Assembly (NCBI GenBank): GCA_027460535.1
Contig: JAPZAR010000020.1
Location: 30,001-62,000, forward strand
Reading direction: 5' to 3'
Length of the DNA: 32,000 nucleotides
From: Candidatus Methanoperedens sp.
GTDB taxonomy: Archaea > Halobacteriota > Methanosarcinia > Methanosarcinales > Methanoperedenaceae
The notes under the pieces are model-generated. The model was given only the letters and a program-made list of their open reading frames with translations, was not told where the DNA came from and did no database searches. Shown here one piece after another: positions 10,096 to 29,090 of this stretch (positions are counted from its first letter, which is position 1; each line of letters starts with the position of its first letter). Made by a program: the position numbers and the translations under genes.

Positions 10096-10288
10096 ACCTA
10101 ATCAAAAGTATTGTATGTATACTATTTAAAATCTATCATTACAATTATCATAATTATATGATTATTATTATTATCATAGACAAACATTGTCTGGAATCTA
10201 ATTTGTGGAACGCTCATTTTAAGAAAAAATAGCTAAGGTTGAAGAATAATTTTTGGCCTACTGAATGGAAGGGTAATTCTCTCGAATA

Positions 10289-10822: not shown

Positions 10823-10834
10823 GCCTTCGCTCTC

Positions 10835-11053: not shown

Positions 11054-11079
11054 ATATCCTTCAGGATATAAGAACCCTT

Positions 11080-12981: not shown

Positions 12982-12993
12982 GACAAATTATTT

Positions 12994-13473: not shown

Positions 13474-13489
13474 TTTGATTCTGGTTGTT

Positions 13490-14710
13490 TCAGATTATTA
13501 GCTCTTCCATTTCAACATCCCTGTTGCGCAGCGAAAGTCTGGATACCTTGAACCTTGTCCCATCCGCAAGCATTGCCTCTTCATGTCCCTGTAATCCTGC
13601 GGCCGCGATCCGCCCAATGGCATCGGCTTTCATTATGCCGCTCCCGGAAGTTCCGCTCACCCATGTCAGATTGGACACGGATTCGATAACCGGGGTCATG
13701 TCAGGCCAATGATAGTCATAGTATCCTGCCCATTTGAGAGACAGCGTGTACCCCAGAAGCTCGGGGAAATAGTGATTTAAAACCGGCTCAATTGCCATGT
13801 GAAAATAGAGAGGATCCGGCTCGAGATCGGACATCAGGAATGGCTGGCCAAGGTCGTCTGCGCAGCCAATAATCAGCAGATTTCTATCAAGTATAGGTTT
13901 GATATAAACGCCTCCCGCAGGCAGGATAATAGCAGGTGAAGAATTCTTGTTGACCAGGAGTTGGGCCGGATCCGTAATACTCAGTGCGAAGAGCTGGCGC
14001 TTTTTGGGAAGTATGCCTGAGGCGATACCGATCGGAGCGAGTAGATCATGCGTCCATGCCCCGGTAGCAATAACAAATCGCGTGGCCTGATAGGTATCGC
14101 CATTCTGATCCATGATCCCGCTGACTTTAACTCCATCCCATGGAGCGTAGCGGCTGTTCTGACCTGTCAGAATGAAGCTTTTAATATCGGTATTGAAACG
14201 GACATGTCCACCTAATGATTCAAACCCGGAAGCATAATGCTTTGCAAGAGCCATCGCGGAGATGGAGCCGCACAGATGGCAGTATATCCCTTTATGAACA
14301 TCGGGGAAAAAGCCTTTTGCTTCGGTATTCAGCCTGAGAATATCAAATAATCCTGTTCTGTCCAGTACTTCGAATCGGTCATTTTTCGGATCAAGGGGCC
14401 GTATGGCTTTTTGGGATTTTTTCCATTGCTCTTCGGAAAATAGCCAGAGATAACCTATTGGGTCTATCTGGACCTTATCGCCAAGTTCCAGATAATACTT
14501 GATGGAACTGCCTGCAAGAATCCTGCTTATGGAAGATGAGAAAAAGTTCCGGTAAAGAGCTGCGCTCTTTGCCGTATTCCCTGCACCTGCGGTACGGTTC
14601 TTATCAATGAGCAATATCTTGCTCTCAGGTTGTGCACCTTTCAAATGATAGGCAGTAGAGCTTCCTACGACCCCTGCACCCACAATAATGTAGTCATAGT
14701 TCATGTGCAC
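13490..14710 (-). CDS. FAD-dependent oxidoreductase (DAO / glycine-sarcosine oxidase-like family)
   Basis: N-terminal dinucleotide-binding YDYIIVGAGVVGSSTAYHL, 406 aa, and a C-terminal GTSGSGIM motif typical of the DAO family. Substrate unknown. Confidence 0.75.
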   Translation of the reverse strand: MHMNYDYIIVGAGVVGSSTAYHLKGAQPESKILLIDKNRTAGAGNTAKSAALYRNFFSSSISRILAGSSIKYYLELGDKVQIDPIGYLWLFSEEQWKKSQKAIRPLDPKNDRFEVLDRTGLFDILRLNTEAKGFFPDVHKGIYCHLCGSISAMALAKHYASGFESLGGHVRFNTDIKSFILTGQNSRYAPWDGVKVSGIMDQNGDTYQATRFVIATGAWTHDLLAPIGIASGILPKKRQLFALSITDPAQLLVNKNSSPAIILPAGGVYIKPILDRNLLIIGCADDLGQPFLMSDLEPDPLYFHMAIEPVLNHYFPELLGYTLSLKWAGYYDYHWPDMTPVIESVSNLTWVSGTSGSGIMKADAIGRIAAAGLQGHEEAMLADGTRFKVSRLSLRNRDVEMEELII

Positions 14711-14890
14711 TCGCAGTACTATCCCAGAATGACAGTAAGGATTAAGTATTTTTCTTTTTCACCCTGCAATACGACTTCAGTTTTTGGCATTGGCGGGAAT
14801 GAGCTTGAATTCTGATGAATGCCGATGGCATTCAGTCGCGATTGAAGAATAATTACCATAGAGTTGGTTCTTGCCAATACTGTCAATATT

Positions 14891-15640
14891 TTATATTTCA
14901 AATTGCATATCATCAAGTGTGGTAATCGTATTATGGAATATTTCTCTCGCTTTCTCCTCGGCTTCTTTCCTCTGCCGTAATGTCTGGTAGATATTTGCAT
15001 CGAAGTGCAATAGAACCATTTTTTTTGCTTTTGCCTCTTTTGCTATCCGCGCTGCCCCTTCAGGATTCAAATGCGGCCAATTGTCATTATTATATCCACT
15101 CTTAAATGAACATTCTGTAATCAGGAGATCAGAATTTCGCGATAATTCTTTTGCATTTTCACAAATACCGGTATCAGCGCAATAAGCTATTATTTTATCA
15201 TCCAGTTCAAATCGATATCCCATACATTTTGCAGAATGAAACAGGAATCGACATTCTACTGAAAATGGAACTTCATGGCGCCCTTCAGGAAGATCATGAA
15301 TATCAACTTTGAAAGGCAATTTTGAAAACGGAACCGTGTAAGGCGTATTGATTATTCTGTCAAGTATATCTTTTGTACCCTCCTGTCCATAAATGTGCAG
15401 TCCCTGCCGGAAATTGAATTTATTCAGAATGTGCAGGCCGATGATGTGGTCAAGATGGAAGTGGCTGAGAAAAAGGTATATCGGTTTCCTGCTGGTGTTG
15501 ACAATATACCGGTCTATTTTATAAAATCCATTGCCAGCATCAAGAATAATAAAGTGGCTATTGGTTTCTATGAGGGTGCATATAGTGTTTCCAGTATCTG
15601 TATCATACCATCCATTAGTTCCGAGAAAGCTAATTTTCAT
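14891..15640 (-). CDS. MBL-fold metallo-hydrolase (RNase Z/BN-like)
   Basis: The start is moved to MKISFLGTNGW (ATG at 15640). HFHLDHIIGL is the HxHxDH metallo-beta-lactamase motif, with a later LLHF. Confidence 0.8.
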   Translation of the reverse strand: MKISFLGTNGWYDTDTGNTICTLIETNSHFIILDAGNGFYKIDRYIVNTSRKPIYLFLSHFHLDHIIGLHILNKFNFRQGLHIYGQEGTKDILDRIINTPYTVPFSKLPFKVDIHDLPEGRHEVPFSVECRFLFHSAKCMGYRFELDDKIIAYCADTGICENAKELSRNSDLLITECSFKSGYNNDNWPHLNPEGAARIAKEAKAKKMVLLHFDANIYQTLRQRKEAEEKAREIFHNTITTLDDMQFEI

Positions 15641-16264
15641 ATCATCCCTATTTGCACAAACATTTAGAACGCCATCCTTATCATGAGAGCTGTCACTATG
15701 AGCGTAACTCTTCCTCATTCGTTAAAATTCTGGGTATGTTTTCTTAAAGTCTATCTTCTCCAATTATTTCAATAACATATTGAATTAAAGCTAATTCTCT
15801 AAGGATTTTTCAAGTTCTATTTTTTTTATAGCTGTTTCATGTACAATACTGAACTGGCTTTTCCTTTCGTTCCATGTGTGTTCGGATGCTCTGTTAACAA
15901 GACCGCTCCAGAATAAATCCATATATGTCACCTCAATTAAGAATTGTTCGGTAATTATAAAGGGAATATCCAAGCGGGGTGAAACTAATCATGACCCAAG
16001 GGTTCATAGATACTGTATAAAAAATGTAATTCCAATCGAAGTAATACAGCTTGGAATGATTTCGGATTTGCATATTGATTCATTCAATTTTACATGAATC
16101 AAACTAATCTTTTTCAAATAGTGCATTTAGGATTCTTCTGATCTCTTCAGCAGTTCCCTCTAACAAATAATAATAGAAATTTTATCAATCTTTATAAAAC
16201 TATTTTCTGTAATTTCTGCTTTTTTTGAGGTGAATATTAGTGAGTAAAAGATAACGTATCGAAA

Positions 16265-16279
16265 GATTAATATAATAAC
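16265..16279 (+). promoter_or_regulatory. Candidate TATA box for the winged-helix regulator gene
   Basis: gattaatataataac lies about 40-50 nt upstream of the ATG at 16318, in an AT-rich gap. Confidence 0.3.
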
Positions 16280-16317
16280 AGTATGACTTATTGCAAGAAC
16301 TAATATGGGAAATCATT

Positions 16318-16701
16318 ATGGAAAAACGCAATATTAAACAACTCGATGATAAGCACGAGGAAATTGCCGATGCACTTATTGCAATTGGTATGAGCAGGAA
16401 TATTGCCAGAACTCTGAGCTATCTTCAGAATGTGGATAATGCTACATCGGTAGACCTGGAAAGAGTGGCCAGATTGTATCAGCCCGAAGTAAGCATTGCA
16501 ATAAAGCAGCTAAAGGAGCGGGAATGGATAAATGAGCGTGAAGAGAAAAAGGTGGGTAAGGGAAGACCTTATAAGATATACTCGCTTAAAATCGGCTTCA
16601 ATGATATAATCTCTCAGCTTGAAAACCAGCAGAGGGAAGCGGTTAATGGAACGCTGGAAAAGATTGAGAAATTGAAGGAATTGAGGAAAGATCAAAGATA
16701 G
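16318..16701 (+). CDS. Winged-helix (ArsR/TrmB-like) transcriptional regulator with C-terminal coiled coil
   Basis: EIADALIAIGMSRNIARTLSYLQNVDNATSVDLERVARLYQPEVSIAIKQLKEREWI...GRPYKIYSL shows the HTH plus wing pattern. The ATG at 16318 is preferred over the TTG at 16291. Confidence 0.65.
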   Translation: MEKRNIKQLDDKHEEIADALIAIGMSRNIARTLSYLQNVDNATSVDLERVARLYQPEVSIAIKQLKEREWINEREEKKVGKGRPYKIYSLKIGFNDIISQLENQQREAVNGTLEKIEKLKELRKDQR

Positions 16702-16852
16702 CTTTTTTCTGTCGCCTGACCGGATTGGAATTTCATTTTCATATTTTCTGGGGATCCTATAATCATGGGTCCTCATTATAGCACTTCCAGGTATGAGCAA
16801 GATATAGAGTGAAAATCACGCCCAACTCCCAAAATAAATGTGAACTCAAGAA

Positions 16853-17998
16853 TTACAGCAGCCCTATATTCGTCTTCCTGACAACTTCATCGTAATTCTT
16901 GTATCCGAGTACTTTTTCTATCATATCGGAGTGTTTTCCCTTGATCTTATTCAATTCGGATGAGGTATAATCCGTGATACCCTTAGCAAATACCAGCCCA
17001 TCGCTTTCCATCTCGATAATATCACCTCTGTCAAACGGGCCGGTGACATCGATGATCCCGGAAGGTAAAAGCCCTCTCTTGTTCCTTATCGCCTTTTCCG
17101 CACCTTTATCCACGATAAGCTTTCCAGAAGGTTTCGAGAGGATTATCCAGCGCGTTCTGTTCTTGTATTTCCCATCCTTTGCAAGGAAGAGCGTTCCGAT
17201 GTTTTCTCCCTCCACGATCTTCATTACCCCATCATCAAAGTTGCTGTTGGCTATAACCATGTGGCATCCAGCTATGGATGTTATCTTGGCAGCCTCTATC
17301 TTGGTCCTCATGCCCCCAACGCCTTTCAAACTTGTAGGACTCCCGCCGTAGCTCTCGATTTCAGGCGTTATCTTTTCTATTACGCTTATTAGCTGCGCAT
17401 CTTCATTTTTCTTGGGGTTCTTATTGTACAAACCATCTATATCGGATAACAGTATCAGAAGCTCTGCCTCGACCTTGCTTGCCACCATTGCAGAGAGCTT
17501 GTCATTATCCCCGAAGGTCGCTTCTATCTCATGCACGCATATCGGGTCGTTCTCATTGATTATAGGAACTACACCGGCTTCCAGGAGAGCCGAGATGGAA
17601 TTCCGAAGATTAAGATAGGTCATACGGTTCGAGAAGGCTTCATAGGTCAGCAGTATCTGTGCCACCTTGAGGTCGTATTTATTGAAGGCTGCCATCCATT
17701 CCTGCATCAGGATGTTCTGGCCTACAGCAGCGGCGGCCTGCCTGAGCGGGATTTCCCGCAGGGGCGCTTTCATCTTCAGTTCCTCGCATCCTATCCCTAT
17801 GGCACCTGAACTTACTACGATCAACGTTTTTCCTTTCTCCCTGAGTTTTGCCACCTGGCGGGCGATATTTTCTGTCAGCCTGCGGTTGAAAGTTCCATTT
17901 TCGCTGCTCAGAGATGACGTTCCGATCTTAATGACGATCCGTTTGATGTCCTTAAAAAGCTCTCTTCTATCAACCTTACTTTCAGGAACCGTTTTCAT
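16853..17998 (-). CDS. proB: Glutamate 5-kinase with PUA domain
   Basis: VIKIGTSSL, VSSGAIGIG, FGDNDKLSA, GGMRTKIEAA and a C-terminal PUA-like domain. ATGA overlap with proA. Confidence 0.93.
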   Translation of the reverse strand: MKTVPESKVDRRELFKDIKRIVIKIGTSSLSSENGTFNRRLTENIARQVAKLREKGKTLIVVSSGAIGIGCEELKMKAPLREIPLRQAAAAVGQNILMQEWMAAFNKYDLKVAQILLTYEAFSNRMTYLNLRNSISALLEAGVVPIINENDPICVHEIEATFGDNDKLSAMVASKVEAELLILLSDIDGLYNKNPKKNEDAQLISVIEKITPEIESYGGSPTSLKGVGGMRTKIEAAKITSIAGCHMVIANSNFDDGVMKIVEGENIGTLFLAKDGKYKNRTRWIILSKPSGKLIVDKGAEKAIRNKRGLLPSGIIDVTGPFDRGDIIEMESDGLVFAKGITDYTSSELNKIKGKHSDMIEKVLGYKNYDEVVRKTNIGLL

Positions 17999-19350
17999 AC
18001 TCTGCTCATTTTATCTGAAAGTCTTAAATTTAACTTCTTATGGGTATATTTACGGGCTTCCTTGCCGACATAATCAGCAACCTTGTTGCCATTCCCAAGC
18101 AGCACATATTTGTAGATCAAAAGCCCTTCCATCCCAACAGGGCCTCGGGCATGGATTTTGTTCGTGCTGATACCTACTTCTGCACCTTTTCCGTATCTAT
18201 AACCATCTGAAAAACGTGTGGAGGCGTTCCACATGACACTGGATGAATCTACAAGCTCGATGAACCTGGCAGCATTACTTTTATCTTCTGTGACAATGGC
18301 ATCGGTATGATGAGAACCATATTTATTGATATGCTCAATTCCTTCATCCAGTGAATCCACTATCCTGATGGAAAGGATCAGGTCGTTGTACTCGGTTCTC
18401 CAGTCTTTTTCTGTGGCATGAAGCACGGCCTTCAGGAACCCCATTTTCGATAGGATTTCGAATGACCCATTATCGCACCGCAGTTCCACCCCTGCGCCGT
18501 TGTAACGCTTTCCCATCTCAGGCAGGAACTTTTCGGCGATATCCCTGTGCACAAGCAGTGTTTCCATGGCATTGCAGACTGCTGGATATTGGACCTTTGC
18601 ATCATAGCATACGTCGTAAGCTTTAGTCAGGTCCGCGATGCTGTCAACGTATACATGACATATACCTGCGGAATGACCGAGCACAGGAATCCTCGTGTTA
18701 TCCTGAATGTATTTGACGAATTCATTCGAGCCCCTTGGAATTATGAGGTTGACGTACTCATCGAGTTTCAGCATTTCGTTGACCTCTTCCCTGGTTTCCA
18801 TGAGCGCAAAAGCACTTCTCGGCATGCCTTCCACATTTTCGATCGCATCCACAAGCAAATCAAAGATAGTCCTGTTGGAATTTGAGGCTTCGCTTCCGCC
18901 TTTGAAGATGGTGGCGTTCCCACTCTTAAGGCAAAGCGACATTATCTGCGGCACTACATCCGGGCGTGATTCGAAGATGACCCCTATCAATCCAATCGGG
19001 CAGCTGACCTGGAAAAGCTCAAGACCTCTGTCAAGCTCAAGGGCTGAAAGGGTCTTTCCAACCGGATCTTCAAATTTGATTACATCGTTTATCCCCGCGA
19101 TCATCTCGTCCAGTTTGGGATCGTCCACTTTCAGCCTTTTGATAAGAGCCTCTGAAAGTTTATCGGCCTCAGCAAGTTTTTCAGCTGCAGCAATGTCTTT
19201 CTTATTAGCTGAGATTATTTTTTCTCTGTTCGAGTCAAGGGCTTTTGACATTCCGGCAAGGGCTTTGTTCTTTATATGAGAGGGGACGCTTGCAAGCTGG
19301 ATGGAGGCGTTTTTTGCGAGTTTTACTTTTGTCAGGATGTCTTTCGTCAT
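17995..19350 (-). CDS. proA: Glutamate-5-semialdehyde dehydrogenase (gamma-glutamyl phosphate reductase)
   Basis: IFESRPDV, LIIPRGSNEFV, HSAGICHVYVD, CNAMETLLVH and GAEVGISTNKIHARGPVGMEGL. Confidence 0.93.
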   Translation of the reverse strand: MTKDILTKVKLAKNASIQLASVPSHIKNKALAGMSKALDSNREKIISANKKDIAAAEKLAEADKLSEALIKRLKVDDPKLDEMIAGINDVIKFEDPVGKTLSALELDRGLELFQVSCPIGLIGVIFESRPDVVPQIMSLCLKSGNATIFKGGSEASNSNRTIFDLLVDAIENVEGMPRSAFALMETREEVNEMLKLDEYVNLIIPRGSNEFVKYIQDNTRIPVLGHSAGICHVYVDSIADLTKAYDVCYDAKVQYPAVCNAMETLLVHRDIAEKFLPEMGKRYNGAGVELRCDNGSFEILSKMGFLKAVLHATEKDWRTEYNDLILSIRIVDSLDEGIEHINKYGSHHTDAIVTEDKSNAARFIELVDSSSVMWNASTRFSDGYRYGKGAEVGISTNKIHARGPVGMEGLLIYKYVLLGNGNKVADYVGKEARKYTHKKLNLRLSDKMSRV

Positions 19351-19605
19351 ATTGATAACTGCTGAATATATTCGGGTTACTTTTACATCATTTTAATTCA
19401 TATAGATATTGTTTCATGATACAGGTTTGAGATGACATCGATTTCGATTCATAATATTCACTATGCATTGGCTCTCTGTCCAAAATACGGAATAACACCA
19501 AAAGTTATATATATAGATTAACAAATTGTGTTGGTAAAAAATGGATAGGTCTAATAAGGAAGACATATATTAAAACGAATCACGAAAACGGGTAGGTCTG
19601 AAAAA

Positions 19606-20559
19606 ATGCAAGTAAAATTTAGTACAATAACTTTTTTAGTATTAACGGGAATCCTGTTCTTGATCCCACAGGCTGTGGCTTCTGAAAATTCATGCATCGA
19701 TTGCCATAAAACATTATCTCCATTCCTTGAAGTACAGAAACAGTTTAACCAGATAAGGATAGAGCATCTTGAGAGAAACGTTTCCTGTTCACTCGAATGC
19801 CATGAAGACAGGGTAAGGCAGCTTGCTACCGCAAATTATCAGCAGTGGTCAGAGTCACTTCACGGTCTGAAGGGAATAACATGTGAAATGTGCCACGGGG
19901 GAGATCCAAAGCAAGCCTCAAAAGATCAAGCGCATGTTGGTATCAAGAAACCTACCGATCCTGAAAGCCCGGTGTATTATACCAACGTCCCCCAAACGTG
20001 CGGTAAATGCCATTCAAGAGAATTGGATAATTTCCAGACCAGCAAACATTATCAGAAGCTGGAGGCATTACAAACCGCCCCGACGTGTACCACTTGCCAT
20101 GCACCTCATACTTTCAAGGTATTGAATCCGGAAGAGTTCAGGAATTTCTGTGGTACCTGCCATTCAATTTACAAAAAGGTCGCACCATACGACATTCCTG
20201 CCCAGGCAGACTACCTGCTTGGGAAAGTGAACAAGTTAAAATTCAATATCGATATGACCCAGCAGGATATCTTCTTTGCCAAGAAGAATGGGACTGACGT
20301 AACACAGGCGCAGATGCATACAGATAATGCGATCAATATGGTTCAAGCTCTTGCGCCCATGTGGCATGAGTTCAATCTCACGCATTTTGAAGATCAGGTG
20401 GATTTGGCCAACAAGGAAATAAATCAGGCCGAAGATATTGTCAAACCGACACCAGGTCCATCAATAACAGAGACTCCCAAGGCCCCTGGGTTTGTGGGAT
20501 TAGCAGGAGTTATCTCATTGCTGGCTGTACTGTATATATTAAGAAAGAACAGGGAATAA
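19606..20559 (+). CDS. Exported multiheme c-type cytochrome (5 CXXCH + 1 CX3CH) with PGF-CTERM-like C-terminal anchor
   Basis: Sec signal ending AVA/SE. CIDCH, CSLECH, CEMCH, CGKCH, CTTCH, CGTCH. Helical C-terminal half. The tail KPTPGPSITETPKAPGFVGLAGVISLLAVLYILRKNRE has a Thr/Pro linker, PGF, a TM segment and basic residues. Confidence 0.85.
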   Translation: MQVKFSTITFLVLTGILFLIPQAVASENSCIDCHKTLSPFLEVQKQFNQIRIEHLERNVSCSLECHEDRVRQLATANYQQWSESLHGLKGITCEMCHGGDPKQASKDQAHVGIKKPTDPESPVYYTNVPQTCGKCHSRELDNFQTSKHYQKLEALQTAPTCTTCHAPHTFKVLNPEEFRNFCGTCHSIYKKVAPYDIPAQADYLLGKVNKLKFNIDMTQQDIFFAKKNGTDVTQAQMHTDNAINMVQALAPMWHEFNLTHFEDQVDLANKEINQAEDIVKPTPGPSITETPKAPGFVGLAGVISLLAVLYILRKNRE

Positions 20560-20604
20560 AAACTTGATAAAAACGATATTCGGTCACATATACAGGTGAA
20601 ATTA

Positions 20605-21054
20605 ATGCAGCCACACTTGAAACGGGCTTTTATGCTGTTGTTCATTGCAATAATCGGGTTTATATTCGTAAGATCCCTGATAGTTCCCGAAACCTTCGGT
20701 CAGTACGGGTGGTACAGGGGTAACTCTGTTAATGATCTCAGAAATCTACCCGTAGAACATGCAGGCTCTGCAAGTTGTGGTGAAGAAAGTTGCCATACGA
20801 CTATCTATTCGATCTGGAGCACCTCAGGGCATAAAACAGTCAATTGTGAAACCTGCCATGGAGCTTCGGAGAACCATGTCAGTAATGTAAGGATAATGCC
20901 TACGCCGGCAAACGCTTCAAGGGATTTCTGCGGCCTGTGTCACTTTAAGCGGATATCACGACCCTCTGATTTCCCGCAGATAGATCCGGAATCCCACGGT
21001 GAAAATTTACAATGTACTTACTGCCATAACCCGCACAAACCGTGGTTCGTATAA
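20605..21054 (+). CDS. Membrane-anchored small multiheme cytochrome c (c3/DsrJ/ActA-like; 3 CXXCH + 1 CX4CH)
   Basis: The ATG at 20605 is preceded by AGGTGA. N-terminal TM helix AFMLLFIAIIGFIF. Motifs CGEESCH, CETCH, CGLCH, CTYCH. Confidence 0.8.
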   Translation: MQPHLKRAFMLLFIAIIGFIFVRSLIVPETFGQYGWYRGNSVNDLRNLPVEHAGSASCGEESCHTTIYSIWSTSGHKTVNCETCHGASENHVSNVRIMPTPANASRDFCGLCHFKRISRPSDFPQIDPESHGENLQCTYCHNPHKPWFV

Positions 21055-21057
21055 GGG

Positions 21058-21837
21058 ATGATTAACATGAGCTTATCAAGACGAGAATTCACGAAATTCG
21101 GATGCAGGGTTATCATAGGGGCAGTAGCGGGCAGTGCTGTTGTAGAATCGATTGTAACAAACGGCAGTGCAGCCAAGGATCCCCCCCCTGCTGAATATGA
21201 TTGGAACAAGCATTACTGGGGCTATGTCATCGATACCCGAAAATGCATAGGATGCGGCAGGTGCGCGAGAGCATGCAAGCTTGAGAACCATGTCCCTTTT
21301 GACGAACCCGTTTACAGGACATGGGTTGAAAGATACAGGGTCCTGAAAGAGGGGGAAGTCAAAATAGATTCACCCAATGGAAGCATAGATGGGTTTACGG
21401 ATGATATCCCGGACGATGAAATCAAAAAAGCCTTTTATGTTCCCAAGATATGCAACCATTGCGACAGCCCACCCTGTGTTCAGGTCTGTCCCGTTGGGGC
21501 CACATATGAGACAAAGGATGGGGTCGTGCTTGTAGATTATGATTACTGTATCGGCTGCCGCTACTGTATCCAGGGGTGCCCTTATGGTGCCAGATATTTT
21601 AACTCTGAAAGGAAGACAGCTGACAAATGTACCTGGTGCTATCACAGGATCACAAAGGGTCTTCTGCCCGCCTGCGTACAGGCATGTCCGGTGGGCGCCA
21701 GGATATTTGGGGATTTGAGAGATCCAGACAGCGCGGTCAATAAGATCCTGGATAAGGAAAGGATCAGTGTTCTTAAAATTGACCTGGGAACGAAACCCAA
21801 GGTATATTATGTTGGATTGGACATGGATGTGAAATGA
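21058..21837 (+). CDS. Tat-exported 4x[4Fe-4S] ferredoxin-like subunit (NrfC/PsrB/DsrO/HybA/ActB-type)
   Basis: Twin-arginine leader SRREFTKFG. Four cluster motifs: CIGCGRCARAC, CNHCDSPPCVQVCP, CIGCRYCIQGCP and CTWC...CVQACP. Confidence 0.88.
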   Translation: MINMSLSRREFTKFGCRVIIGAVAGSAVVESIVTNGSAAKDPPPAEYDWNKHYWGYVIDTRKCIGCGRCARACKLENHVPFDEPVYRTWVERYRVLKEGEVKIDSPNGSIDGFTDDIPDDEIKKAFYVPKICNHCDSPPCVQVCPVGATYETKDGVVLVDYDYCIGCRYCIQGCPYGARYFNSERKTADKCTWCYHRITKGLLPACVQACPVGARIFGDLRDPDSAVNKILDKERISVLKIDLGTKPKVYYVGLDMDVK

Positions 21838-23006
21838 TGGAGAGTTTGATCTGGGGATACATATACCCAAATGAAGCTGAAATACAATGGAGCGTACTGA
21901 TCGTATTATATCCATATATAACCGGGCTCGTAGCGGGAGCTTTTATCGCATCATCGCTGTATCATGTTTTTGGAAAAAAAGAGATAAGGCCTGTTGCCAG
22001 ATTCGCGCTACTTACGGCACTCTCTTTCCTGTTAGTCGCGACAATGCCGTTGCTTACACATCTTGGGCATCCAGAGCGAGGGATCGAGATCATGTTCACC
22101 CCTCATCTTACCTCCGCAATGTCGGGATTTGGATATATATATTCGTTTTATCTGATTGTGGTCGTGCTTGAAATCTGGTTATCCTTCAGAGAGGACATAG
22201 TCAAGATGGCCCATAATTCCAGGGGATGGAAAGAACTATTATACTCGGCGCTGGCTCTTTTCTCATACGATATTTCAGAAAAGGCCTTGCATCAGGATGA
22301 AAAACTCGCCAAAAGGCTTGCAATAATAGGAATTCCTTCCGCAGCTTTCCTTCATGGATATGTGGGTTTCATATTTGGTGGGATCAAGGCGAATCCCTGG
22401 TGGTCTACCCCGCTTATGCCTCTCATATTCCTGATGTCAGCCATTGTATCGGGGATAGCTCTTCTGATCCTGCTGTATATTGCGGCCATGAAGATACGAA
22501 AACATGCTATAGACCACAAATGCCTTCATTCACTGGCACATTACCTGTGGATTTTCCTGATATTGGACTTCACACTGGAAATGCTTGAGATCATCAGCAT
22601 GAAATATGAGTCGCTTGAGCGGATCGATATAATCAACAGGCTTCTTTCCGATAAGATCGCCACTACTTTCTACGGTGTTCAACTTGGATTGGGTATTTTC
22701 ATCCCGTTCATTCTTATTCTTCTGGTGGGTATGATGAAGAATCGTGAAACGCTGAAGATGATAATGATCGCGATTTCATCCATTTTTGTCGTGATAGGCG
22801 TGTTCGCGATGAGATGGAATGTTGTAATTGGAGGGCAGGAGATCTCAAAGAGCCTCAGCGGAACCCTTACCTATGTTCCGGTTTTCTTCAGCCAGGAAGG
22901 TGTGCTGCCAGCGATTATAATAATGATAATTCCTTTCATCATCCTTTTAGTTGTAACGTACATACTTCCACCATGGAAAGATATGGATGAAGAGGTTGCG
23001 GAATAA
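21834..23006 (+). CDS. NrfD/PsrC/DsrP-type integral membrane quinone-interacting subunit
   Basis: 390 aa and about 10 TM segments. The N-terminal WSVLIVLYPYITGLVAGAF...HLGHPERG matches the NrfD-family DLGxPxR-type motif. ATGA overlap with the FeS gene. Confidence 0.82.
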   Translation: MMESLIWGYIYPNEAEIQWSVLIVLYPYITGLVAGAFIASSLYHVFGKKEIRPVARFALLTALSFLLVATMPLLTHLGHPERGIEIMFTPHLTSAMSGFGYIYSFYLIVVVLEIWLSFREDIVKMAHNSRGWKELLYSALALFSYDISEKALHQDEKLAKRLAIIGIPSAAFLHGYVGFIFGGIKANPWWSTPLMPLIFLMSAIVSGIALLILLYIAAMKIRKHAIDHKCLHSLAHYLWIFLILDFTLEMLEIISMKYESLERIDIINRLLSDKIATTFYGVQLGLGIFIPFILILLVGMMKNRETLKMIMIAISSIFVVIGVFAMRWNVVIGGQEISKSLSGTLTYVPVFFSQEGVLPAIIIMIIPFIILLVVTYILPPWKDMDEEVAE

Positions 23007-23123
23007 ATTTTAAAAGACAAAAAAATTCACTAATCGTAAGGTATTTATTGTATTAGATCGTCAGATTATTAAAATTTGCCAGATTGAAAAACGGGTACTA
23101 GGTTTTGGCTTATAGGAATTACT

Positions 23124-23177
23124 TGAAGATAGGATATTTAATGGAAGATATGAATATTTAGGAAGATAGGATATTTA
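23124..23177 (+). promoter_or_regulatory. Three tandem 18-19 bp direct repeats (GGAAGATAGGATATTTA-type), candidate tandem BRE/TATA modules or operator array
   Basis: tgaagataggatattta (23124-23140), ggaagatatgaatattta (23143-23160) and ggaagataggatattta (23161-23177). The last copy begins 44 nt upstream of the ATG at 23205. A related GGAAGACATATATTA sits 48 nt upstream of the paralog start at 19606. Confidence 0.55.
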
Positions 23178-23204
23178 TCATCACAATAACGGTGGAAGCG
23201 AAAA

Positions 23205-24170
23205 ATGTTTTTGAAAACAAGAAGACAAAAAAATACATGCATACGGATTTCCCTTTGCTGCTTATTCCTTGTATATTTCGTGGGTTCTGCAGGGGCATCA
23301 CATTTAGACGTTCTCAATAACTCATGCGTTGACTGCCATAAGGCTTTGTCTCCTTTTACAGATGAGCAGAAACGATTTAACGAAATAAGAATTAATCATA
23401 CCGAAAGGAACATATCATGCTCTCTTGAATGCCATGAGGATGTCATTAGGAAAAGAGCTTCGGATAATTTTCAGCAGTGGTCAGATTCCACCCATTCAAT
23501 ATATTATGTCACATGTGACAAATGCCATGGCGGGGATGCGCGCGCGAACACAGAATCGGGAGCCCATGCCTCAATGAAAAATATAACCGACCCGAATAGC
23601 ACCATTTATTTTAAGAACATCCCGGAAACATGCGGGAAATGCCATACTGCAGAACTTGACCATTTCAAGAACACCATGCATTACCAGAGATTGAGATCCA
23701 CATCACAAGGTCCATCCTGTACAACCTGCCATCAACCTCACAGTTTCAAGGTGCTCAAATCCTCGGAGCTGACCAATCTGTGCAGTGCTTGCCATAATTC
23801 AGTAGATCAGATAGCAACAGCGAGCGTTCCGCAGGATGCAAAAAAGGCTCTCGAAAAGGCGGGTGAATTCCAGGCAGAGGTAATGAAAGCGAAAAATGCC
23901 ATTGCCGATGCCAAAGCAAAGGGAAATGATATATCTTCAGCACAGATGAATCTGGACAAGGCAAATGCAGTACTGGATGAGATTCCTTCCCTGTGGCATG
24001 GATTTGATCTGAAGAACTTTGACGAGCAAATCCAAAGCGGAGTGGATTGGGCCAAAAAGGCGGAATACGAGGCTTCGGGCGCAGAACCCACGGTGCCGCG
24101 AGCTTCATGGCCAGGGATAGTCCTGTTGTTCGGGATTTTTGCGATAATATATTTGATAAAGAAACGGTGA
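23205..24170 (+). CDS. Exported multiheme c-type cytochrome (5 CXXCH + 1 CX3CH), paralog of 19606..20559, with variant PGF-CTERM-like tail
   Basis: Signal peptide. CVDCH, CSLECH, CDKCH, CGKCH, CTTCH, CSACH in the same order and spacing as the paralog. Tail EPTVPRASWPGIVLLFGIFAIIYLIKKR. Confidence 0.85.
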   Translation: MFLKTRRQKNTCIRISLCCLFLVYFVGSAGASHLDVLNNSCVDCHKALSPFTDEQKRFNEIRINHTERNISCSLECHEDVIRKRASDNFQQWSDSTHSIYYVTCDKCHGGDARANTESGAHASMKNITDPNSTIYFKNIPETCGKCHTAELDHFKNTMHYQRLRSTSQGPSCTTCHQPHSFKVLKSSELTNLCSACHNSVDQIATASVPQDAKKALEKAGEFQAEVMKAKNAIADAKAKGNDISSAQMNLDKANAVLDEIPSLWHGFDLKNFDEQIQSGVDWAKKAEYEASGAEPTVPRASWPGIVLLFGIFAIIYLIKKR

Positions 24171-24182
24171 AAGGTACATTCA

Positions 24183-25283
24183 ATGGATAAAATATCATCT
24201 ACAACAATCATAAAGAATTGGATTTCAGCAAATAAGGTTCCAATAATTATAATATTAGTAGTCATGTTCTCAGCAGTGGTAGTAGTTTCTGAGAAAATGC
24301 TTGAAATAACCGAGAATCCTGCTTTCTGCGGGAAGAACTGCCATATTATGAGGCCTTACTATGACTCATGGCGAACTTCCTCGCATAATGATGTTCGATG
24401 TGTGGAATGCCATTATGAACCCGGGTTAATCGGGCATATCAAAGGCAAGATCAATGGACTAATGCAATTCTACAGCTATGAGACGACAGTTGATGAATAT
24501 TCAGGCCAATTATATGCTAAGGTCATGGACAAAAACTGCCTTGCCTGCCATGAGAAGCATATCTTTTCTTCAGATATCGGTTACATGGGCGTGAACTTCA
24601 GCCATAAAAATCACCTGCTCGAATCCAAAAGAGGAATATCACTAACATGCACGAGCTGCCACTCCATGCTTGTAATAGGGATGAGAGAACATCAGTCAGT
24701 AACAGATCCTACATGCATGCAGTGCCATCCTAATATGGCGAGCAACGATGTCGGGCATATCGTGGTCACGAATTCAACATGCTTTACATGTCACTTCAGG
24801 GATGTGGCGGGCAATACGTCAATATCCGGCTGCCCCTCCTGCCACGGTCCACCGAAGGAAATGACGCACAGCAATTATACGAACTTCAATCATACAAGTC
24901 ATTTGAGCCGGGGATTTGAATGCCTGACCTGCCATACCAATATATCAAGCAATGCTAATGACATTGTTCCGAAAGAGAAATGCTTCTCCTGCCACAATGT
25001 CAAGGAGAGAGTTGACAAGTACGATGATTTCAGCTTAGTGCACAATACCCATGTCACGAACAATAAGATCGCATGCTACAACTGTCACTCCAATGTTCTG
25101 CATTCACCGGAAATAAAAAAGGACCTGTGTGCCAATTGTCACGGCAATGAACATCCGAGCGATTGGTTAAAAACACATAAGACGCAGGTTTTGATTGGTA
25201 AAGTTTGCAGTGACTGTCATCAGCCCAAGTTCTGCGCAGACTGTCATGCCACCGGAGTAGCAAATGGGAAAATAGCAAAATAA
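24183..25283 (+). CDS. NapC/NirT/NrfH-like membrane-anchored multiheme cytochrome, expanded (12 CXXCH + 1 CX3CH)
   Basis: N-terminal TM helix VPIIIILVVMFSAVVVV. FCGKNCHIMRPYYDSWRTSSHNDVRCVECH parallels the NapC/NirT N-terminal FCxSCHxM...S.H...C.DCH pattern. Twelve further CXXCH motifs were counted by hand. Confidence 0.85.
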   Translation: MDKISSTTIIKNWISANKVPIIIILVVMFSAVVVVSEKMLEITENPAFCGKNCHIMRPYYDSWRTSSHNDVRCVECHYEPGLIGHIKGKINGLMQFYSYETTVDEYSGQLYAKVMDKNCLACHEKHIFSSDIGYMGVNFSHKNHLLESKRGISLTCTSCHSMLVIGMREHQSVTDPTCMQCHPNMASNDVGHIVVTNSTCFTCHFRDVAGNTSISGCPSCHGPPKEMTHSNYTNFNHTSHLSRGFECLTCHTNISSNANDIVPKEKCFSCHNVKERVDKYDDFSLVHNTHVTNNKIACYNCHSNVLHSPEIKKDLCANCHGNEHPSDWLKTHKTQVLIGKVCSDCHQPKFCADCHATGVANGKIAK

Positions 25284-25329
25284 GGCTTTTCCCCACTTTT
25301 CTATTTCCTGAAATGTATCAGGCCTCCCA

Positions 25330-25911
25330 ATGAAGATTTCATATAAGAATACTACAGTAAAAATTGCACCAAATGTATATGAACCTTCGGAAGATTCATT
25401 CATGCTTGCTGATGCGGCATTGTCGGAAATAAGAGAATCGGAAACCGTTTTAGAAGTCGGATGTGGAAGCGGGATAATATCACGGGTTATAAAAGAACAT
25501 TCAAAAGCCAGTGTTATCGGTATCGATATTAACCCACATGCAGTAAAGACCACAAAAGAAAACGGGGTAGAGGTCATAAGAGGAGATCTCTTGCATTGCC
25601 TTAAAGGAAAATTTGACATGATAATCTTCAATCCACCATACCTGCCAACCGGAGAAGGCGAAAGGACAAAGGATTGGATGAACACGGCTCTGGATGGGGG
25701 ATACGATGGAAGGAGGGTGATCTACAGTTTTCTTGAGAATGCAGGTGATCGCCTTGTTGAAAAGGGCAGGATTCTGATGGTCTTATCCTCTCTTACGGGG
25801 ATAGAACAGGTAAAAGAGATGATGGAATCATTGGGTTATACGGTAACAAATAAGGCTGTGGAAAGATTCAGCTTTGAACAGCTCACGGTTATACTTGCCG
25901 CGAAGATATGA
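25330..25911 (+). CDS. HemK/Mtq2-family protein (glutamine-N5) methyltransferase
   Basis: VLEVGCGSGIIS (SAM motif I) and IIFNPPYLP (NPPY catalytic motif). 193 aa, as in the archaeal HemK-related enzymes. Confidence 0.85.
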   Translation: MKISYKNTTVKIAPNVYEPSEDSFMLADAALSEIRESETVLEVGCGSGIISRVIKEHSKASVIGIDINPHAVKTTKENGVEVIRGDLLHCLKGKFDMIIFNPPYLPTGEGERTKDWMNTALDGGYDGRRVIYSFLENAGDRLVEKGRILMVLSSLTGIEQVKEMMESLGYTVTNKAVERFSFEQLTVILAAKI

Positions 25912-26373: not shown

Positions 26374-27333
26374 ATGAATATCGGAAAATTGAGATTGAAC
26401 GGATGTCTCCTCCTTGCCCCCATGTCCGGAGTCACCAACTTGCCAATGAGGCTTCTCTGCAAAAAACATGGTGCCTCCCTTGTGTACTCTGAAATGGCCT
26501 GTTCTGAGGGAATCGTAAGAAAGAACCCGAAGAGTATCGCAAGGGGCGTTACCTGCATGGATGAGCGGCCTTTTGGTATCCAGTTACTTGGTTCCAGTGC
26601 CGACGCCCTGGTGAGATCAGCCTCCATCCTTCAAGAAATCCACATGCCTGAACTTATAGATATGAATTTTGGCTGTCCTTCCCAGTGTGTTCTTAGAAAT
26701 GGGTTCGGGTCGGCGCTTTTAAAAAAGCCGGAGGAGGTCGAAGATATAATAAAAAAATTATCGGGATCTCTTGATGTGCCTGTGACTGCAAAGATAAGAG
26801 TGTTGAATAGCCATGAAGAAACACTGAAAATAGCACGTATCATTGAAAAATCAGGGGCAAGCGCGATAACAGTTCACGGGAGGACACCAAAACAGCAGTA
26901 CTCAGGAAAATCAAACCTTGAGATAATCAGGAAAATAAAAAACGAGCTTTCGATCCCAGTGATTGCAAACGGGGATATCTCTGATGAAAAGCAAGCCGAG
27001 CTTGTGCTGAAATACACGCAGTGCGATGGGATAATGATAGGAAGGGCTGCCATCGGTAATCCATATATCTTCCGCAGGATCGCACATTATCTCGATACGG
27101 GGGAACTATTACAGCCACGAACGTTCGGGGACCAGATAGGAGAATTTTTTGAGTATGCAGCTTTATGCAGCAAATATGATATGATGGCTTATAGTGATTT
27201 GAAGCTTAAAGCCCAGTGGTTCCTGAAAAAAAGGGAAAATATAAGATCCGAGCGCAAAAAGATAAACGAAGCGAAGGATATCGATATGATATTGAAAATC
27301 ATGAGTGGATTGAGGGAGGAATCTTCGGGGTAG
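26374..27333 (+). CDS. dus: tRNA-dihydrouridine synthase (Dus family, FMN TIM barrel)
   Basis: LAPMSGVTNLPMRLLC, DMNFGCP, VTAKIR, ITVHGRT, PVIANGDI and GIMIGRAAIGNPYIF. Confidence 0.9.
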   Translation: MNIGKLRLNGCLLLAPMSGVTNLPMRLLCKKHGASLVYSEMACSEGIVRKNPKSIARGVTCMDERPFGIQLLGSSADALVRSASILQEIHMPELIDMNFGCPSQCVLRNGFGSALLKKPEEVEDIIKKLSGSLDVPVTAKIRVLNSHEETLKIARIIEKSGASAITVHGRTPKQQYSGKSNLEIIRKIKNELSIPVIANGDISDEKQAELVLKYTQCDGIMIGRAAIGNPYIFRRIAHYLDTGELLQPRTFGDQIGEFFEYAALCSKYDMMAYSDLKLKAQWFLKKRENIRSERKKINEAKDIDMILKIMSGLREESSG

Positions 27334-27380
27334 TTTCGCTCACACATATCTTTAATACAAAAAAACATATTCTAAATCAT

Positions 27381-29090
27381 ATGAAAGGCTGGGCAGGCAG
27401 GATCATAGAGATAGATCTGACTGATGAGAAGATCACAGAAACAAAGAGTGATTTAAGTACACTTCATTACTTTATCGGAGGGAGAGGGCTGGGAGTTAAG
27501 CTGTATTATGATGCTGTGAGCACCGATATCGACCCCTTGGGCCCGGAAAATTTCCTTATATTCGCGACTGGCCCTCTTACCGGAACGGGGGCTCCCATGT
27601 CGGGCAGGCACGCTATGGTATCAAAATCCCCACTTACAGGAACGATATTTGGTTCCAGCAGCGGGGGTTTTTTCGGGAAAGAGCTAAAGTTCGCAGGGAT
27701 AGATGCGCTTTTGATAAAAGGGGCTTCAGAGGAGCCATCTTATATTTCTATCGAGAACGAAAAAATTGAGATACATCACGCAGAACAATTATGGGGAGAG
27801 AACGTCAGGGCATGCACGGATAAACTCTTATCTAAAGGGCGCGTTGCATGCATCGGGCGGGCGGGGGAGAGGCTTGTTCCCATTGCAAATGTCATGAATG
27901 ATTACTTTCATGCCGCAGGGCGCGGAGGTCTGGGTGCGGTAATGGGTTCAAAGAAGCTCAAGGCGATCGTGGTGAAAGGGGACAGGAGACCATCGATTGC
28001 GGATGAAGCGGGGTTTGAGGAAGCCTGCCAGGATGCGCTCCGTCTTTTGAAATCAGGATCTTCAAAAGGTCTGTCCACATACGGGACTTCAGCTATGGCG
28101 AGCCTGATGAATTATACGAAAATATTGCCCACGGGGAACTTTCAGAGAAGTGAATTTAGCGGTATGGATAAAATTTCAGGCGAATTCATCAAAGAAAATT
28201 ATGATATTAAAGGACATGCGTGTTATAATTGCGTTGTGGCGTGCAAGCACATAATTAAAAGCGGAGCAATGGAAGGATACGAAGTCCCGGAATACGAAAC
28301 CCTCTGGGCCTACGGGCCTGATAATAACAACGCGGATATGGATATGATAATCAGGGCCAACCGCTTCTGCAATGATTATGGGATAGATACTATATCCTCC
28401 GGTTCTACCATTGCGGCGTATGCCGAGATAATGGGCGAGGATATGAAAGAGTTATCCGGGCTTGTAAAAAAAATCGGCGAGAATGAAGGTATCGGCAAAG
28501 ACCTTGGAAAGGGTTCAAAGACATTTGCGCAATCGCGTGGAAAAGATGTCGCGATGCATGTAAAAGGGCTTGAGATCCCGGGATACGACCCAAGAGGAGT
28601 GCTGGGCATGGCGATTGCCTATGCCACTTCCAATCGAGGAGGATGCCATCTGAGGGCATATACGGTGGCGCCAGAAGTCCTCGGCAGGCCGGAAAAGGTA
28701 GACAGGCTGACGTTTTCAGGAAAAGCAGGACTTGTGCAGGTATTACAGAATGCCTCTGCGTCCCTGGACTCACTGGTGCTGTGCAAGTTCGTATCATTTG
28801 CGATCTCGGAAAGAGAATTAGCAAATCTTCTAAGTACTGCAACCGGTGTGGATTATTCCACAGAAAAATTCTTGAAATGTGGCGAGAGGATATGGAACCT
28901 TGAAAGGCTGTTCAATAATAAAGCGGGGTTCTCGCGAAAGGACGATTGCCTTCCTGAGCGATTCTTCGGGAATGAGGGAATAAACAGGGCGGAATTTGAA
29001 AAAGCGCTGGATGAGTATTATCAATTAAGGGGCTGGGATAAGAATGGGGTACCGACACAGGAGAAGTTGAAAGAATTGAATCTTGCGTAG
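27381..29090 (+). CDS. aor: Aldehyde:ferredoxin oxidoreductase (tungsto/molybdopterin AOR family)
   Basis: The start is moved to MKGWAGRIIEIDLT (ATG at 27381; TATA-like tttaatac about 30 nt upstream, after the dus stop). FIGGRGLG, FATGPLTGT, CYNCVVACKH (4Fe-4S ligands), SNRGGCHLR and the C-terminal YYQLRGWD. Confidence 0.9.
   Translation: MKGWAGRIIEIDLTDEKITETKSDLSTLHYFIGGRGLGVKLYYDAVSTDIDPLGPENFLIFATGPLTGTGAPMSGRHAMVSKSPLTGTIFGSSSGGFFGKELKFAGIDALLIKGASEEPSYISIENEKIEIHHAEQLWGENVRACTDKLLSKGRVACIGRAGERLVPIANVMNDYFHAAGRGGLGAVMGSKKLKAIVVKGDRRPSIADEAGFEEACQDALRLLKSGSSKGLSTYGTSAMASLMNYTKILPTGNFQRSEFSGMDKISGEFIKENYDIKGHACYNCVVACKHIIKSGAMEGYEVPEYETLWAYGPDNNNADMDMIIRANRFCNDYGIDTISSGSTIAAYAEIMGEDMKELSGLVKKIGENEGIGKDLGKGSKTFAQSRGKDVAMHVKGLEIPGYDPRGVLGMAIAYATSNRGGCHLRAYTVAPEVLGRPEKVDRLTFSGKAGLVQVLQNASASLDSLVLCKFVSFAISERELANLLSTATGVDYSTEKFLKCGERIWNLERLFNNKAGFSRKDDCLPERFFGNEGINRAEFEKALDEYYQLRGWDKNGVPTQEKLKELNLA

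Follow-up and report, generated by a model that had tools for sequence, protein, structure and literature searches.

Anaerobic methane oxidation in Methanoperedens may be nitrate-, metal- or electrode-dependent, and its central question is by which route the eight electrons of methane leave the membrane of these archaea. Five menaquinol outlets have been predicted, one of which is a cluster tabulated by Leu et al. 2020 (mBio, Data Set S1A) as group 1 of the menaquinone:cytochrome c oxidoreductases (M.Nitro_00590-00595, the same genes as ANME2D_00599-00604). Its members are listed as NrfD, a 4Fe-4S protein and cytochromes with 3, 6, 13 and 6 haems, NrfD being found in 11 of the 15 columns shown for metagenome-assembled genomes (MAGs), and the hypothesis published with the list is that menaquinol electrons are passed to cytochromes beyond the membrane. 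Here, we describe a cluster of this type, consisting of the genes g1 to g6 at 19606-25283, in a stretch of 32,000 nucleotides (nt) from Candidatus Methanoperedens sp. (GenBank assembly GCA_027460535.1, contig JAPZAR010000020.1, positions 30,001 to 62,000 of the forward strand), which is referred to as the window and supplies the coordinates unless another locus (numbered L001 and so on) is named.

The window carries the full group 1 gene set in one locus, orthologous to and collinear with that of M. nitroreducens, with identical gene content and order, proteins 69-85% identical and no essential difference; only for the small cytochrome do the descriptions diverge, as the group 1 papers count CxxCH motifs alone ('3-haem') whereas four motifs are counted here in g2. 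The cluster is an orthologue of a predicted system that has already been described, the function of which is a hypothesis there as well. An initial annotation of this DNA implied novelty, which does not hold, and its proposed wire from quinol to cytochromes, although reasonable, equals the published hypothesis of transfer from menaquinol to c-type cytochromes. Since the literature already contains both this set of genes and the role proposed for it (Leu et al. 2020), the cluster is a target for biochemistry rather than a discovery. No biochemical characterization of it was found in the papers searched or read, in agreement with the initial annotation.

The cluster is also highly transcribed. 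In the work of Arshad et al. 2015 (PMC4683180, Table 2), MPEBLZ_03194, 03195, 04299 and 04300 are homologous to ANME2D_00599, 00600, 00603 and 00604, and their CxxCH counts (5, 3, 5 and 12), their extra CxxxCH/CxxxxCH motifs and the N-terminal helices of 04299 and 04300 match g1, g2, g5 and g6. In strain BLZ1 growing on nitrate, these genes reached 1073, 767, 993 and 907 reads per kilobase and per million reads mapped (RPKM), respectively, and were among the most transcribed c-type cytochromes. High expression has also been reported (Leu et al. 2020, ISME J, PMC7082337) for the operon of NrfD, FeS (iron-sulfur) protein and 3- and 6-haem cytochromes in Ca. M. manganicus oxidizing methane with Mn(IV). 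What goes beyond the published record, not being stated in these papers, is the reading of the cluster as two units, the widespread core module, the predicted ActC fold of the g4 model, the NapC/NirT-type character of g6 and the PGF/PG-type tails of g1 and g5: the 13-haem protein is not described as NapC/NirT-type in the searchable papers on the cluster, and an ActC-like fold, PGF-type anchors and a two-unit structure are not mentioned in the searched texts of these papers.

In the reading that we prefer, with a probability of roughly 0.7, two adjacent and separable electron-export modules drain the menaquinol pool onto c-type cytochromes of the outer face. In module A, menaquinol from the F420H2 dehydrogenase and HdrDE would be oxidized in the cofactor-less, ActC-like g4 with release of protons outside, and the electrons would travel through the four [4Fe-4S] clusters of g3, a protein exported by twin-arginine translocation (Tat) and seated on g4, to the membrane-tethered tetrahaem g2 and from there to the putatively archaeosortase-anchored hexahaem g1. 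In module B, the NapC/NirT/NrfH-type domain of g6 would oxidize menaquinol directly at its first haem, and electrons would run along the 13 haems of g6 to the paralogous hexahaem g5. Both hexahaems would then reduce whichever acceptor system is expressed, be it the pseudoperiplasmic nitrate and nitrite reductases or the larger S-layer and extracellular cytochromes that serve metal oxides and electrodes. Of this picture, the genes present, their families, the signals for export and anchoring, the conserved synteny, the missing catalytic partner and, from the literature, transcription are established, while subunit contacts, direction of electron flow, identity of the quinone, downstream acceptors and any proton pumping are the parts of the scheme that we infer. 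We deduce the outer-face topology from the Tat motif of g3, from the signal peptide or N-terminal anchor that each of the four cytochromes carries, and from the PGF-type tails. For two alternative quinol-oxidizing modules feeding one network there is a precedent in Shewanella, where, as summarized in PMC11434368, the NrfCD-type SirCD (FeS protein plus NrfD) can replace the NapC/NirT-type CymA on the same cytochrome network.

Six co-oriented open reading frames (ORFs) were confirmed on the + strand in the ORF listing of the window, with intergenic distances, in order, of 36, 3, -4 (an ATGA overlap), 198 and 12 nt. They encode 29 haem motifs, of which 25 are CxxCH and 4 are expanded (CX3-4CH), while residue-shuffled versions of the proteins contained a mean of 0.02-0.13 CxxCH per protein and a maximum of 3. 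The initial annotation had reported the same tight spacing and about 29 motifs, and the families that it named are borne out, with g4 as NrfD, g3 as a four-cluster Tat FeS protein and g6 as NapC/NirT-type, as is the tail of lipid-anchor type that it saw on g1. Its statement that no catalytic subunit is present likewise stands: the 32 kb window encodes neither a molybdopterin reductase nor NrfA, an HdrD-type protein or a cytochrome b, and neither a catalytic reductase in synteny outside the block nor any other such partner (molybdopterin enzyme, NrfA, HdrD, cytochrome b) was found beside the orthologous clusters, the flanks of which vary between genomes.

The first gene of module A, g1 (19606..20559, + strand), encodes an exported hexahaem cytochrome c of 317 amino acids (aa) with a signal peptide, five CxxCH motifs and one CxxxCH (CSLECH), and is orthologous to MPEBLZ_03194, ANME2D_00599 and M.Nitro_00590. 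Substrates of archaeosortase A with a PGF-CTERM end are recognized by a Thr/Pro-rich C-terminal linker, a PGF motif, a hydrophobic helix and a basic tail; g1 ends in APGF, a hydrophobic helix and RKNRE, and PGF, hydrophobic helix and R/K tail were present, by inspection, in all six distinct g1 orthologues examined. The TIGR04126 PGF_CTERM profile gave 14.1 bits with g1, the cut-off being 24.5, and had no match in g5. For the NrfD module, we propose that g1 serves as a lipid-anchored shuttle or acceptor of electrons. Matches of g1 and g2 to sequences in the PDB were marginal (NrfA-type and octahaem nitrite reductases, E 0.002-0.006) and were not used for function.

The small tetrahaem cytochrome c g2 (20596..21054, + strand) has an uncleaved N-terminal membrane helix and is 152 aa long if read from GTG; it is called as 149 aa in public assemblies and orthologues, corresponding to ATG 20605, which is probably the true start. 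It contains three CxxCH motifs and one CxxxxCH (CGEESCH). The label 'c3-like', given to it in the initial annotation along with four motifs and a membrane anchor, is weak, as Cytochrome_C554 passes the Pfam cut-off but c3_2 and c7 remain below it, while the motifs and the anchor were found as described. In alignment with bacterial homologues, the helix, an FG..YGxYR motif and the four haem sites are kept. The first haem motif, at 20776-20796, is expanded: archaeal g2 proteins read CGEE(S/N)CH or CGKEDCH at this site, whereas every aligned bacterial homologue reads CxxCH.

The Tat-exported subunit g3 (21058..21837, + strand) is a ferredoxin-like protein of 259 aa and of the NrfC/PsrB/DsrO/ActB2 type, with 16 Cys arranged as four ferredoxin-type Cys4 motifs for 4x[4Fe-4S]. 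Its twin-arginine motif, SRREF, conforms to S/T-R-R-x-F-x-K before a hydrophobic stretch, the sequence in the window being MINMSLSRREFTKFG; (S/T)RRxF is kept in all eight archaeal orthologous loci, and an RR motif occurs in 42 of 50 bacterial homologues. The profile Fer4_11 matched at 2.5e-28, and among the NCBIfam equivalogs g3 passes DsrO (206.6 bits, cut-off 200), while it stays below TtrB (228.9, cut-off 416) and NrfC (164.8, cut-off 377.6). By sequence, its nearest PDB relatives are PsrB (2vpw_B, 5.4e-47), ArrB and the FeS half of ActB (6.4e-26).

The adjoining g4 (21834..23006, + strand, 390 aa), which overlaps g3 by 4 nt at ATGA, is an NrfD-family integral membrane subunit of the quinol/quinone-interacting kind. 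It matches Pfam NrfD PF03916 at 7.9e-47 (160.8 bits, cut-off 25.8, profile positions 8-309 of 313), contains 9-10 segments of hydrophobic or helical character and is free of Cys and haem motifs; a polytopic NrfD-type protein (8-10 helices) next to a Tat four-cluster ferredoxin is the pairing characteristic of the NrfD/PsrC family. The equivalog profiles of NrfD (66.9, cut-off 347.6) and DsrP (40.9, cut-off 350) are not reached. Full-length matches in Ca. Methanoperedens are 78-94% identical to g4, and the protein is identical in NCBI assembly GCA_027460495.1, where it is encoded on a 54.7 kb contig. Searches of PDB sequences with the single sequence and with a 20-sequence profile returned no match even at E up to 1, so structural likeness had to come from an AlphaFold2 (AF2) model and Foldseek. 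The model (predicted local distance difference test score, pLDDT, 78.9; predicted template modelling score, pTM, 0.83) was closest to ActC of alternative complex III, with 8k9e_C (E 6.1e-9) and 6btm_C as the best matches at a query-based TM-score (TMq) of 0.79 and 6f0k_C within 0.77-0.79, as compared with about 0.54 for ActF and 0.38 for the 8-helix PsrC 2vpw_C. Based on this model, g4 is predicted to have an ActC-like fold.

Alternative complex III (ActABCDEF; 6btm, 6f0k, 6lod, 8k9e), a quinol:cytochrome c oxidoreductase, thus offers the closest structural comparison for module A, as it shares a cofactor-free NrfD-type subunit, with the ActC-type fold found in the g4 model, a four-cluster FeS subunit on the outer side, a tethered multihaem cytochrome and a lipid-anchored exit cytochrome, and an alignment at about 1e-25 links g3 with the FeS half of ActB. 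Unlike that complex, the block has an FeS subunit with all 16 Cys (four Cys4 motifs) and no molybdopterin-like ActB1 domain (g3 consists of 259 aa with Fer4 domains), no second NrfD (ActF), no ActD and no ActE; g4 falls some 60 residues short of ActC in length, and the tetrahaem g2 has no detectable sequence similarity to the pentahaem ActA. It is tempting, though speculative and on present evidence doubtful, to see in g2-g3-g4 a minimal alternative complex III, possibly proton-translocating, that would represent a very widespread unnamed three-gene menaquinol:cytochrome c oxidoreductase of bacteria and archaea, with module B as a 'CymA with built-in wire'. If this were true, that is, if a minimal alternative complex III stood beside a self-contained g6 and each had an archaeosortase-anchored hexahaem of its own, Methanoperedens could pick an energy-conserving or a non-conserving quinol outlet according to the potential of the acceptor.

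In module B, g5 (23205..24170, + strand, 321 aa) is a second exported hexahaem cytochrome with five CxxCH motifs and one expanded motif, and is a paralogue of g1 over its full length (41% identity). Its C-terminus consists of WPGI, a helix and KKR, a PG(I)-type anchor tail, and a PGI or PG-x-G variant was seen by inspection in most g5 orthologues, which include MPEBLZ_04299, ANME2D_00603 and M.Nitro_00594. The last gene, g6 (24183..25283, + strand, 366 aa), encodes a membrane-anchored cytochrome with 12 CxxCH motifs and one CX3CH, in which a NapC/NirT/NrfH-type tetrahaem domain (residues ~20-165) is followed by a nine-haem extension (~170-366) that is in part ActA-like. Residues 1-172 match PF03264 NapC/NirT at 3.7e-10 (40.2 bits, cut-off 24.1, profile positions 11-167 of 174), although this profile was absent from the matches when full-length g6 was scanned at E up to 0.01. 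TIGR03153 NrfH matches at 6.4e-20 (positions 4-134 of 138), with 71.6 bits below the equivalog cut-off of 134.2; with this score and no NrfA in the window, g6 does not qualify as NrfH proper, and in Methanoperedens the genuine nrfHA operon is, according to the literature, a locus separate from this cluster. Residues 40-185 align with NrfH 2j7a_C (FCgkNCHIMrP versus FCt-SCHIMnP) and residues 234-347 with the pentahaem ActA 6lod_A of alternative complex III.

The NapC-type domain has an N-terminal anchor and four haem sites at C49, C73, C119 and C156, the first of which is CGKNCHIM (CX3CHxM), the family pattern being CxxCHxM. Across archaeal and bacterial homologues, P46, F48, C49, C53, H54, M56 and P58 are invariant (P-x-F-C...C-H-x-M-x-P), and Lys89, which aligns with NrfH Lys82, is nearly so, CHxM and Lys each being present in at least 90% of the homologues. 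With NapC, NirT, NrfH and CymA, g6 shares the N-terminal helix, the tetrahaem domain, the F-C-x-x-C-H-x-M-x-P signature and the conserved Lys; it differs from them in the CX3CH first motif, in Gln for Asp89 and in nine extra C-terminal haem motifs, and has no NrfA, Nap or Tor partner nearby. To judge by these profiles and residues, g6 most likely combines a quinol dehydrogenase of NapC/NirT type with a fused haem wire.

The first motif of g6, CGKNCH at 24327-24344, contains a one-residue insertion in all aligned Methanoperedens sequences, short paralogues or variants among them, while the aligned bacterial homologues all have CxxCH. Two unrelated cytochromes of one cluster, g2 and g6, carry lineage-specific insertions that expand the first motif. 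In addition, a short version of g6, 217-243 aa long, occurs in some Methanoperedens (P0189, P0195, P0199; L087, 723-1454), which retains the domain of NapC/NirT type together with the final three haem motifs but lacks the middle ~150 residues with six haem motifs. In L087, a PTS_2-RNA gene lies near the short g6, and a gene of the same type is found downstream of the full-length g6 in M. nitroreducens.

Relatives of g4 are found far beyond the archaea. In species-representative genomes, a pattern scan returned at least 595 loci, among which the NrfD subunit is about 50% identical across phyla, and the best bacterial relatives, 48-57% identical, belong to Acidobacteriota, Chloroflexota, Bacillota, Bacteroidota, Thermodesulfobacteriota, Myxococcota and other phyla; neither Geobacter nor Shewanella was represented among the top 80 loci of the scan. 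Gene order was followed in the 68 bacterial loci in which the ORF caller found the NrfD gene, and all counts from them are lower bounds, because the caller misses genes in high-GC DNA (about 10 high-GC loci, including Anaeromyxobacter, were missed). An FeS gene stands directly upstream of the NrfD gene in at least 50 of the 68 loci, and at least 32 have the complete triad, in which a small tetrahaem cytochrome accompanies the FeS protein and NrfD. At least 6 loci encode a multihaem cytochrome of the g6-like NapC type no more than six genes away from NrfD, and at least 9 have a g1-like cytochrome nearby. The tetrahaem-FeS-NrfD core is, by this survey, a widespread bacterial module, and its wide distribution over bacterial phyla suggests that it is old and mobile, which fits the conclusion of Leu et al. 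that the NrfD genes of Methanoperedenaceae were gained laterally from Dehalococcoidales-like donors.

The genes that follow the triad differ among the bacteria. In three loci of Thermodesulfobacteriota (L015, 11252-13300; L021, 7292-9232; L027, 11239-13152), the triad is followed by a single protein of 637-682 aa and then by a 7-haem cytochrome; the protein of L015 consists of NarI-like, Fer4 and two CCG domains, resembling a DsrM-DsrK fusion, and those of L021 and L027 look alike by sequence inspection. In Acidobacteriota (L036, 11216-12943; L034, L038, L051, L053, L062, L072), this place is taken by a conserved polytopic membrane protein, ~550-600 aa long, which has a coiled coil at its N-terminus and belongs to no Pfam family, and an equivalently placed protein in a member of Bacteroidia (L070, 5411-7063) likewise has no Pfam match. 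Neither the DsrM-DsrK-like fusion nor the polytopic protein of ~575 aa was found in the archaeal clusters. In a Chloroflexi MAG (L005), the triad is embedded in a larger block (5275-15044), between, on one side, a cytochrome with 7 haems, a cytochrome b of the Ni_hydr_CYTB type and a NapC/NirT-type multihaem cytochrome of 514 aa and, on the other, a 15-haem protein of 447 aa and a cytochrome of 801 aa that has CarboxypepD_reg domains. This block could be a system for extracellular electron transfer (EET) in a bacterium that is probably single-membraned.

Among described bacterial systems that resemble module A, Cbc4 of Geobacter (CbcSTU) combines a c-type cytochrome, an FeS protein and an integral membrane subunit and is implicated in EET, although the likeness is one of description; in the paper describing CbcSTU, CbcU is called a b-type cytochrome and compared with an NrfD gene. 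SirCD of Shewanella, also among these systems, is an FeS plus NrfD quinol dehydrogenase. In comparison with NrfBCD, the module of formate-dependent nitrite reductase, the NrfC and NrfD equivalog cut-offs are not reached by g3 and g4, and no NrfA is present in the window.

Such comparisons raise the question of whether the archaeal cluster is a dedicated EET conduit, there specifically to connect quinol with acceptors that are insoluble or lie outside the cell (for instance Fe(III), Mn(IV), electrodes or partner cells). Its expression under Mn(IV) in Ca. M. manganicus (PMC7082337), the very large multihaem proteins that sometimes adjoin bacterial relatives of the module (L005, L022, L045) and the lack of a periplasmic reductase encoded nearby are in favor of this idea, which we nevertheless regard as unlikely. 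The four cytochromes are among the most transcribed of their type in BLZ1 on nitrate (PMC4683180); the NrfD cluster that Ouboter et al. 2024 describe as induced on electrodes belongs to the other NrfD group, with 7-haem cytochromes and a cytochrome b like that of formate dehydrogenase (Fdh); and no component has an S-layer-spanning domain, the largest protein being 366 aa. The initial annotation had carried its wire on to a cell-surface or extracellular acceptor, or the reverse; none of the proteins of the block can cross the S-layer. Because of this, and of RPKM values of 767-1073 on nitrate, a general menaquinol:cytochrome c oxidoreductase fits better than a conduit specific to EET.

The comparison of genomes also bears on whether the six genes form one machine. 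M. nitroreducens (L001) has the six genes in identical order (identities of 71% for g1, 77% for g2, 76% for g3, 85% for g4, 69% for g5 and 76% for g6), with upstream neighbors that differ from those of the window and only the downstream methyltransferase in common, and two further Methanoperedenaceae MAGs (L008 and L010) carry all six in the same order. Elsewhere the parts come apart: in L007 and L009, g1/g2-g4 are present and g5-g6 are not beside NrfD; L003/L004, from a distant relative (NrfD identity 65%), have five genes and no g6; and in the table of Leu et al. the pair of 13-haem and 6-haem cytochromes has a different genomic location in Mn-1 and Mn-2, and in CMD-1 and CMD-2 it is found with no NrfD module. 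The view of the initial annotation that two quinol-coupling modules are combined here needs to be amended in that they are separable.

The spacer between g4 and g5 (23007..23204, + strand) is 198 nt long in the window and 153-240 nt across the six-gene loci. At 23125-23177, 28-80 nt before the start of g5, it contains three tandem ~18-nt copies of GGAAGATA(G/T)GA(A)TATTTA, each with a TATA-like ATATTTA, and a partial echo of the repeat, GGATAGGATACCAGGATATTTAAAAATA, is found in the spacer of M. nitroreducens; these repeats may constitute an internal archaeal promoter or operator for g5-g6. Directly 3' of the NrfD gene in L008 (11195-11250) and L010 (11195-11260), there is a perfect hairpin (CACAGAG...CTCTGTG) with a T-run, absent from the spacer of the window, which looks like a terminator dividing two units. 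As g1 and g5 are paralogous, the parts separate in other genomes and the spacer holds such candidate signals, we see in the block a pair of adjoining units that are separable, g1-g4 and g5-g6, with one hexahaem partner apiece. A scan of 19300-25450 for sigma-70 promoters and intrinsic terminators, a bacterial-type model inappropriate for an archaeon, gave 23 promoter-like sites versus 15.5 +/- 4.1 in shuffles and 6 terminator-like sites versus 5.4 +/- 2.3, which is not clearly different. Upstream of the block, the intergenic region between the divergent proA and g1 (19351..19605, given on the + strand) is A/T-rich and may act as a promoter, the candidate archaeal element being TTATATATATA at ~19505-19517.

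A single six-subunit supercomplex, in which the NapC-type domain of g6 and the NrfD protein g4 cooperate in one machine, is quite improbable in light of these separations and of the spacer with its TATA-like repeats in the window and terminator-like hairpins in two relatives, even though the genes stand side by side in one order in at least four Methanoperedens genomes and, to judge by contiguous locus tags, in several of the MAGs of Leu et al., a g6-like cytochrome lies within six genes of NrfD in at least 6 of the 68 bacterial loci, and the four cytochromes have similar RPKM (PMC4683180).

Several considerations weigh against the export of menaquinol electrons through two modules. Complex formation and quinol oxidation are inferred, and the direction of electrons cannot be read from sequence. 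In Qrc, Hmc and Nhc, which are homologous NrfD/FeS/cytochrome complexes, electron flow is presumed to be towards quinone. In g6, the equivalent of NrfH Asp89 is Gln95, with Gln or Glu in most homologues, and the AF2 prediction for g6, made without haems from an alignment of 24 sequences, was too poor for a fold test (pLDDT 56, pTM 0.40); membership in NapC/NirT rests on sequence profiles. Haem attachment at the first motifs of g2 and g6 is assumed, since these are expanded (CX4CH and CX3CH) relative to those of the bacterial homologues. Finally, the DsrM-DsrK-like fusion beside close relatives in Thermodesulfobacteriota indicates that the ancestral module can work with a cytoplasmic partner.

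If the direction were reversed, the modules would act as cytochrome c:menaquinone reductases, as is presumed for Qrc, Nhc and Hmc of sulfate reducers, and electrons from outside (Fe(II), a cathode or, via periplasmic enzymes, H2 or formate) would enter the quinone pool. The architecture of a multihaem cytochrome, a four-cluster FeS protein and NrfD without a cytoplasmic subunit is indeed that of the presumed quinone reducers, and the HmcB, HmcC and QrcC profiles match g3 and g4, but they do so weakly, with all Qrc and Hmc scores far under their cut-offs. Furthermore, catabolism in the published metabolic model yields reduced quinone that needs an outlet, and NapC/NirT-type proteins, the type of g6, have been characterized as quinol dehydrogenases, so that reverse operation is highly improbable.

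With DsrMKJOP/Hme of sulfate reducers and Archaeoglobus, module A has in common the outer triad of a cytochrome c, a Tat FeS protein (DsrO) and NrfD (DsrP), while g2 has four haem motifs and DsrJ three, g3 exceeds the DsrO cut-off and g4 falls far under that of DsrP, and no gene for DsrM (NarI-like cytochrome b) or DsrK (CCG/HdrD-like) is present in the window or the Methanoperedenaceae loci. That g2-g4 join a cytochrome b/HdrD-type (CCG) module encoded elsewhere and couple the outer cytochromes to cytoplasmic CoM-S-S-CoB chemistry is very remote, for the narrow pass of g3 at the DsrO cut-off and the CCG fusion proteins of L015, L021 and L027 are set against a DsrP score of 40.9 (cut-off 350), the lack of such a gene in the window or beside the Methanoperedenaceae clusters examined, and the lack of a CCG protein in most bacterial triad loci.

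The block is flanked upstream by proB and proA on the opposite strand and downstream by genes for a small methyltransferase, dihydrouridine synthase (Dus) and aldehyde:ferredoxin oxidoreductase, and because of the housekeeping flanks (proBA, Dus, Trm5) and a GC content of ~0.43, a location on a Borg or plasmid was rejected. Aldehyde:ferredoxin oxidoreductase, a cytoplasmic tungsto/molybdopterin enzyme encoded 2 kb downstream, was also rejected as a partner of the cluster, because two unrelated genes intervene and no synteny is kept in other genomes. Its gene (AFOR_N plus AFOR_C) is listed at 27216-29090 as an ORF that overlaps Dus, and the real start is probably near 27390.

In the rest of the window, GC content is low at 1-1000 (0.32) and 15001-17000 (0.36-0.37) compared with ~0.43 in the remainder, and an ORF of 136 aa without a Pfam match (16291-16701) is situated inside the second of these regions. 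On the - strand, two adjoining genes at 7418-10095 encode DUF7289 proteins, the larger of which (662 aa) also has DUF7308, and a protein of 334 aa with an Mrr-type restriction endonuclease domain is encoded at 5899-6903.

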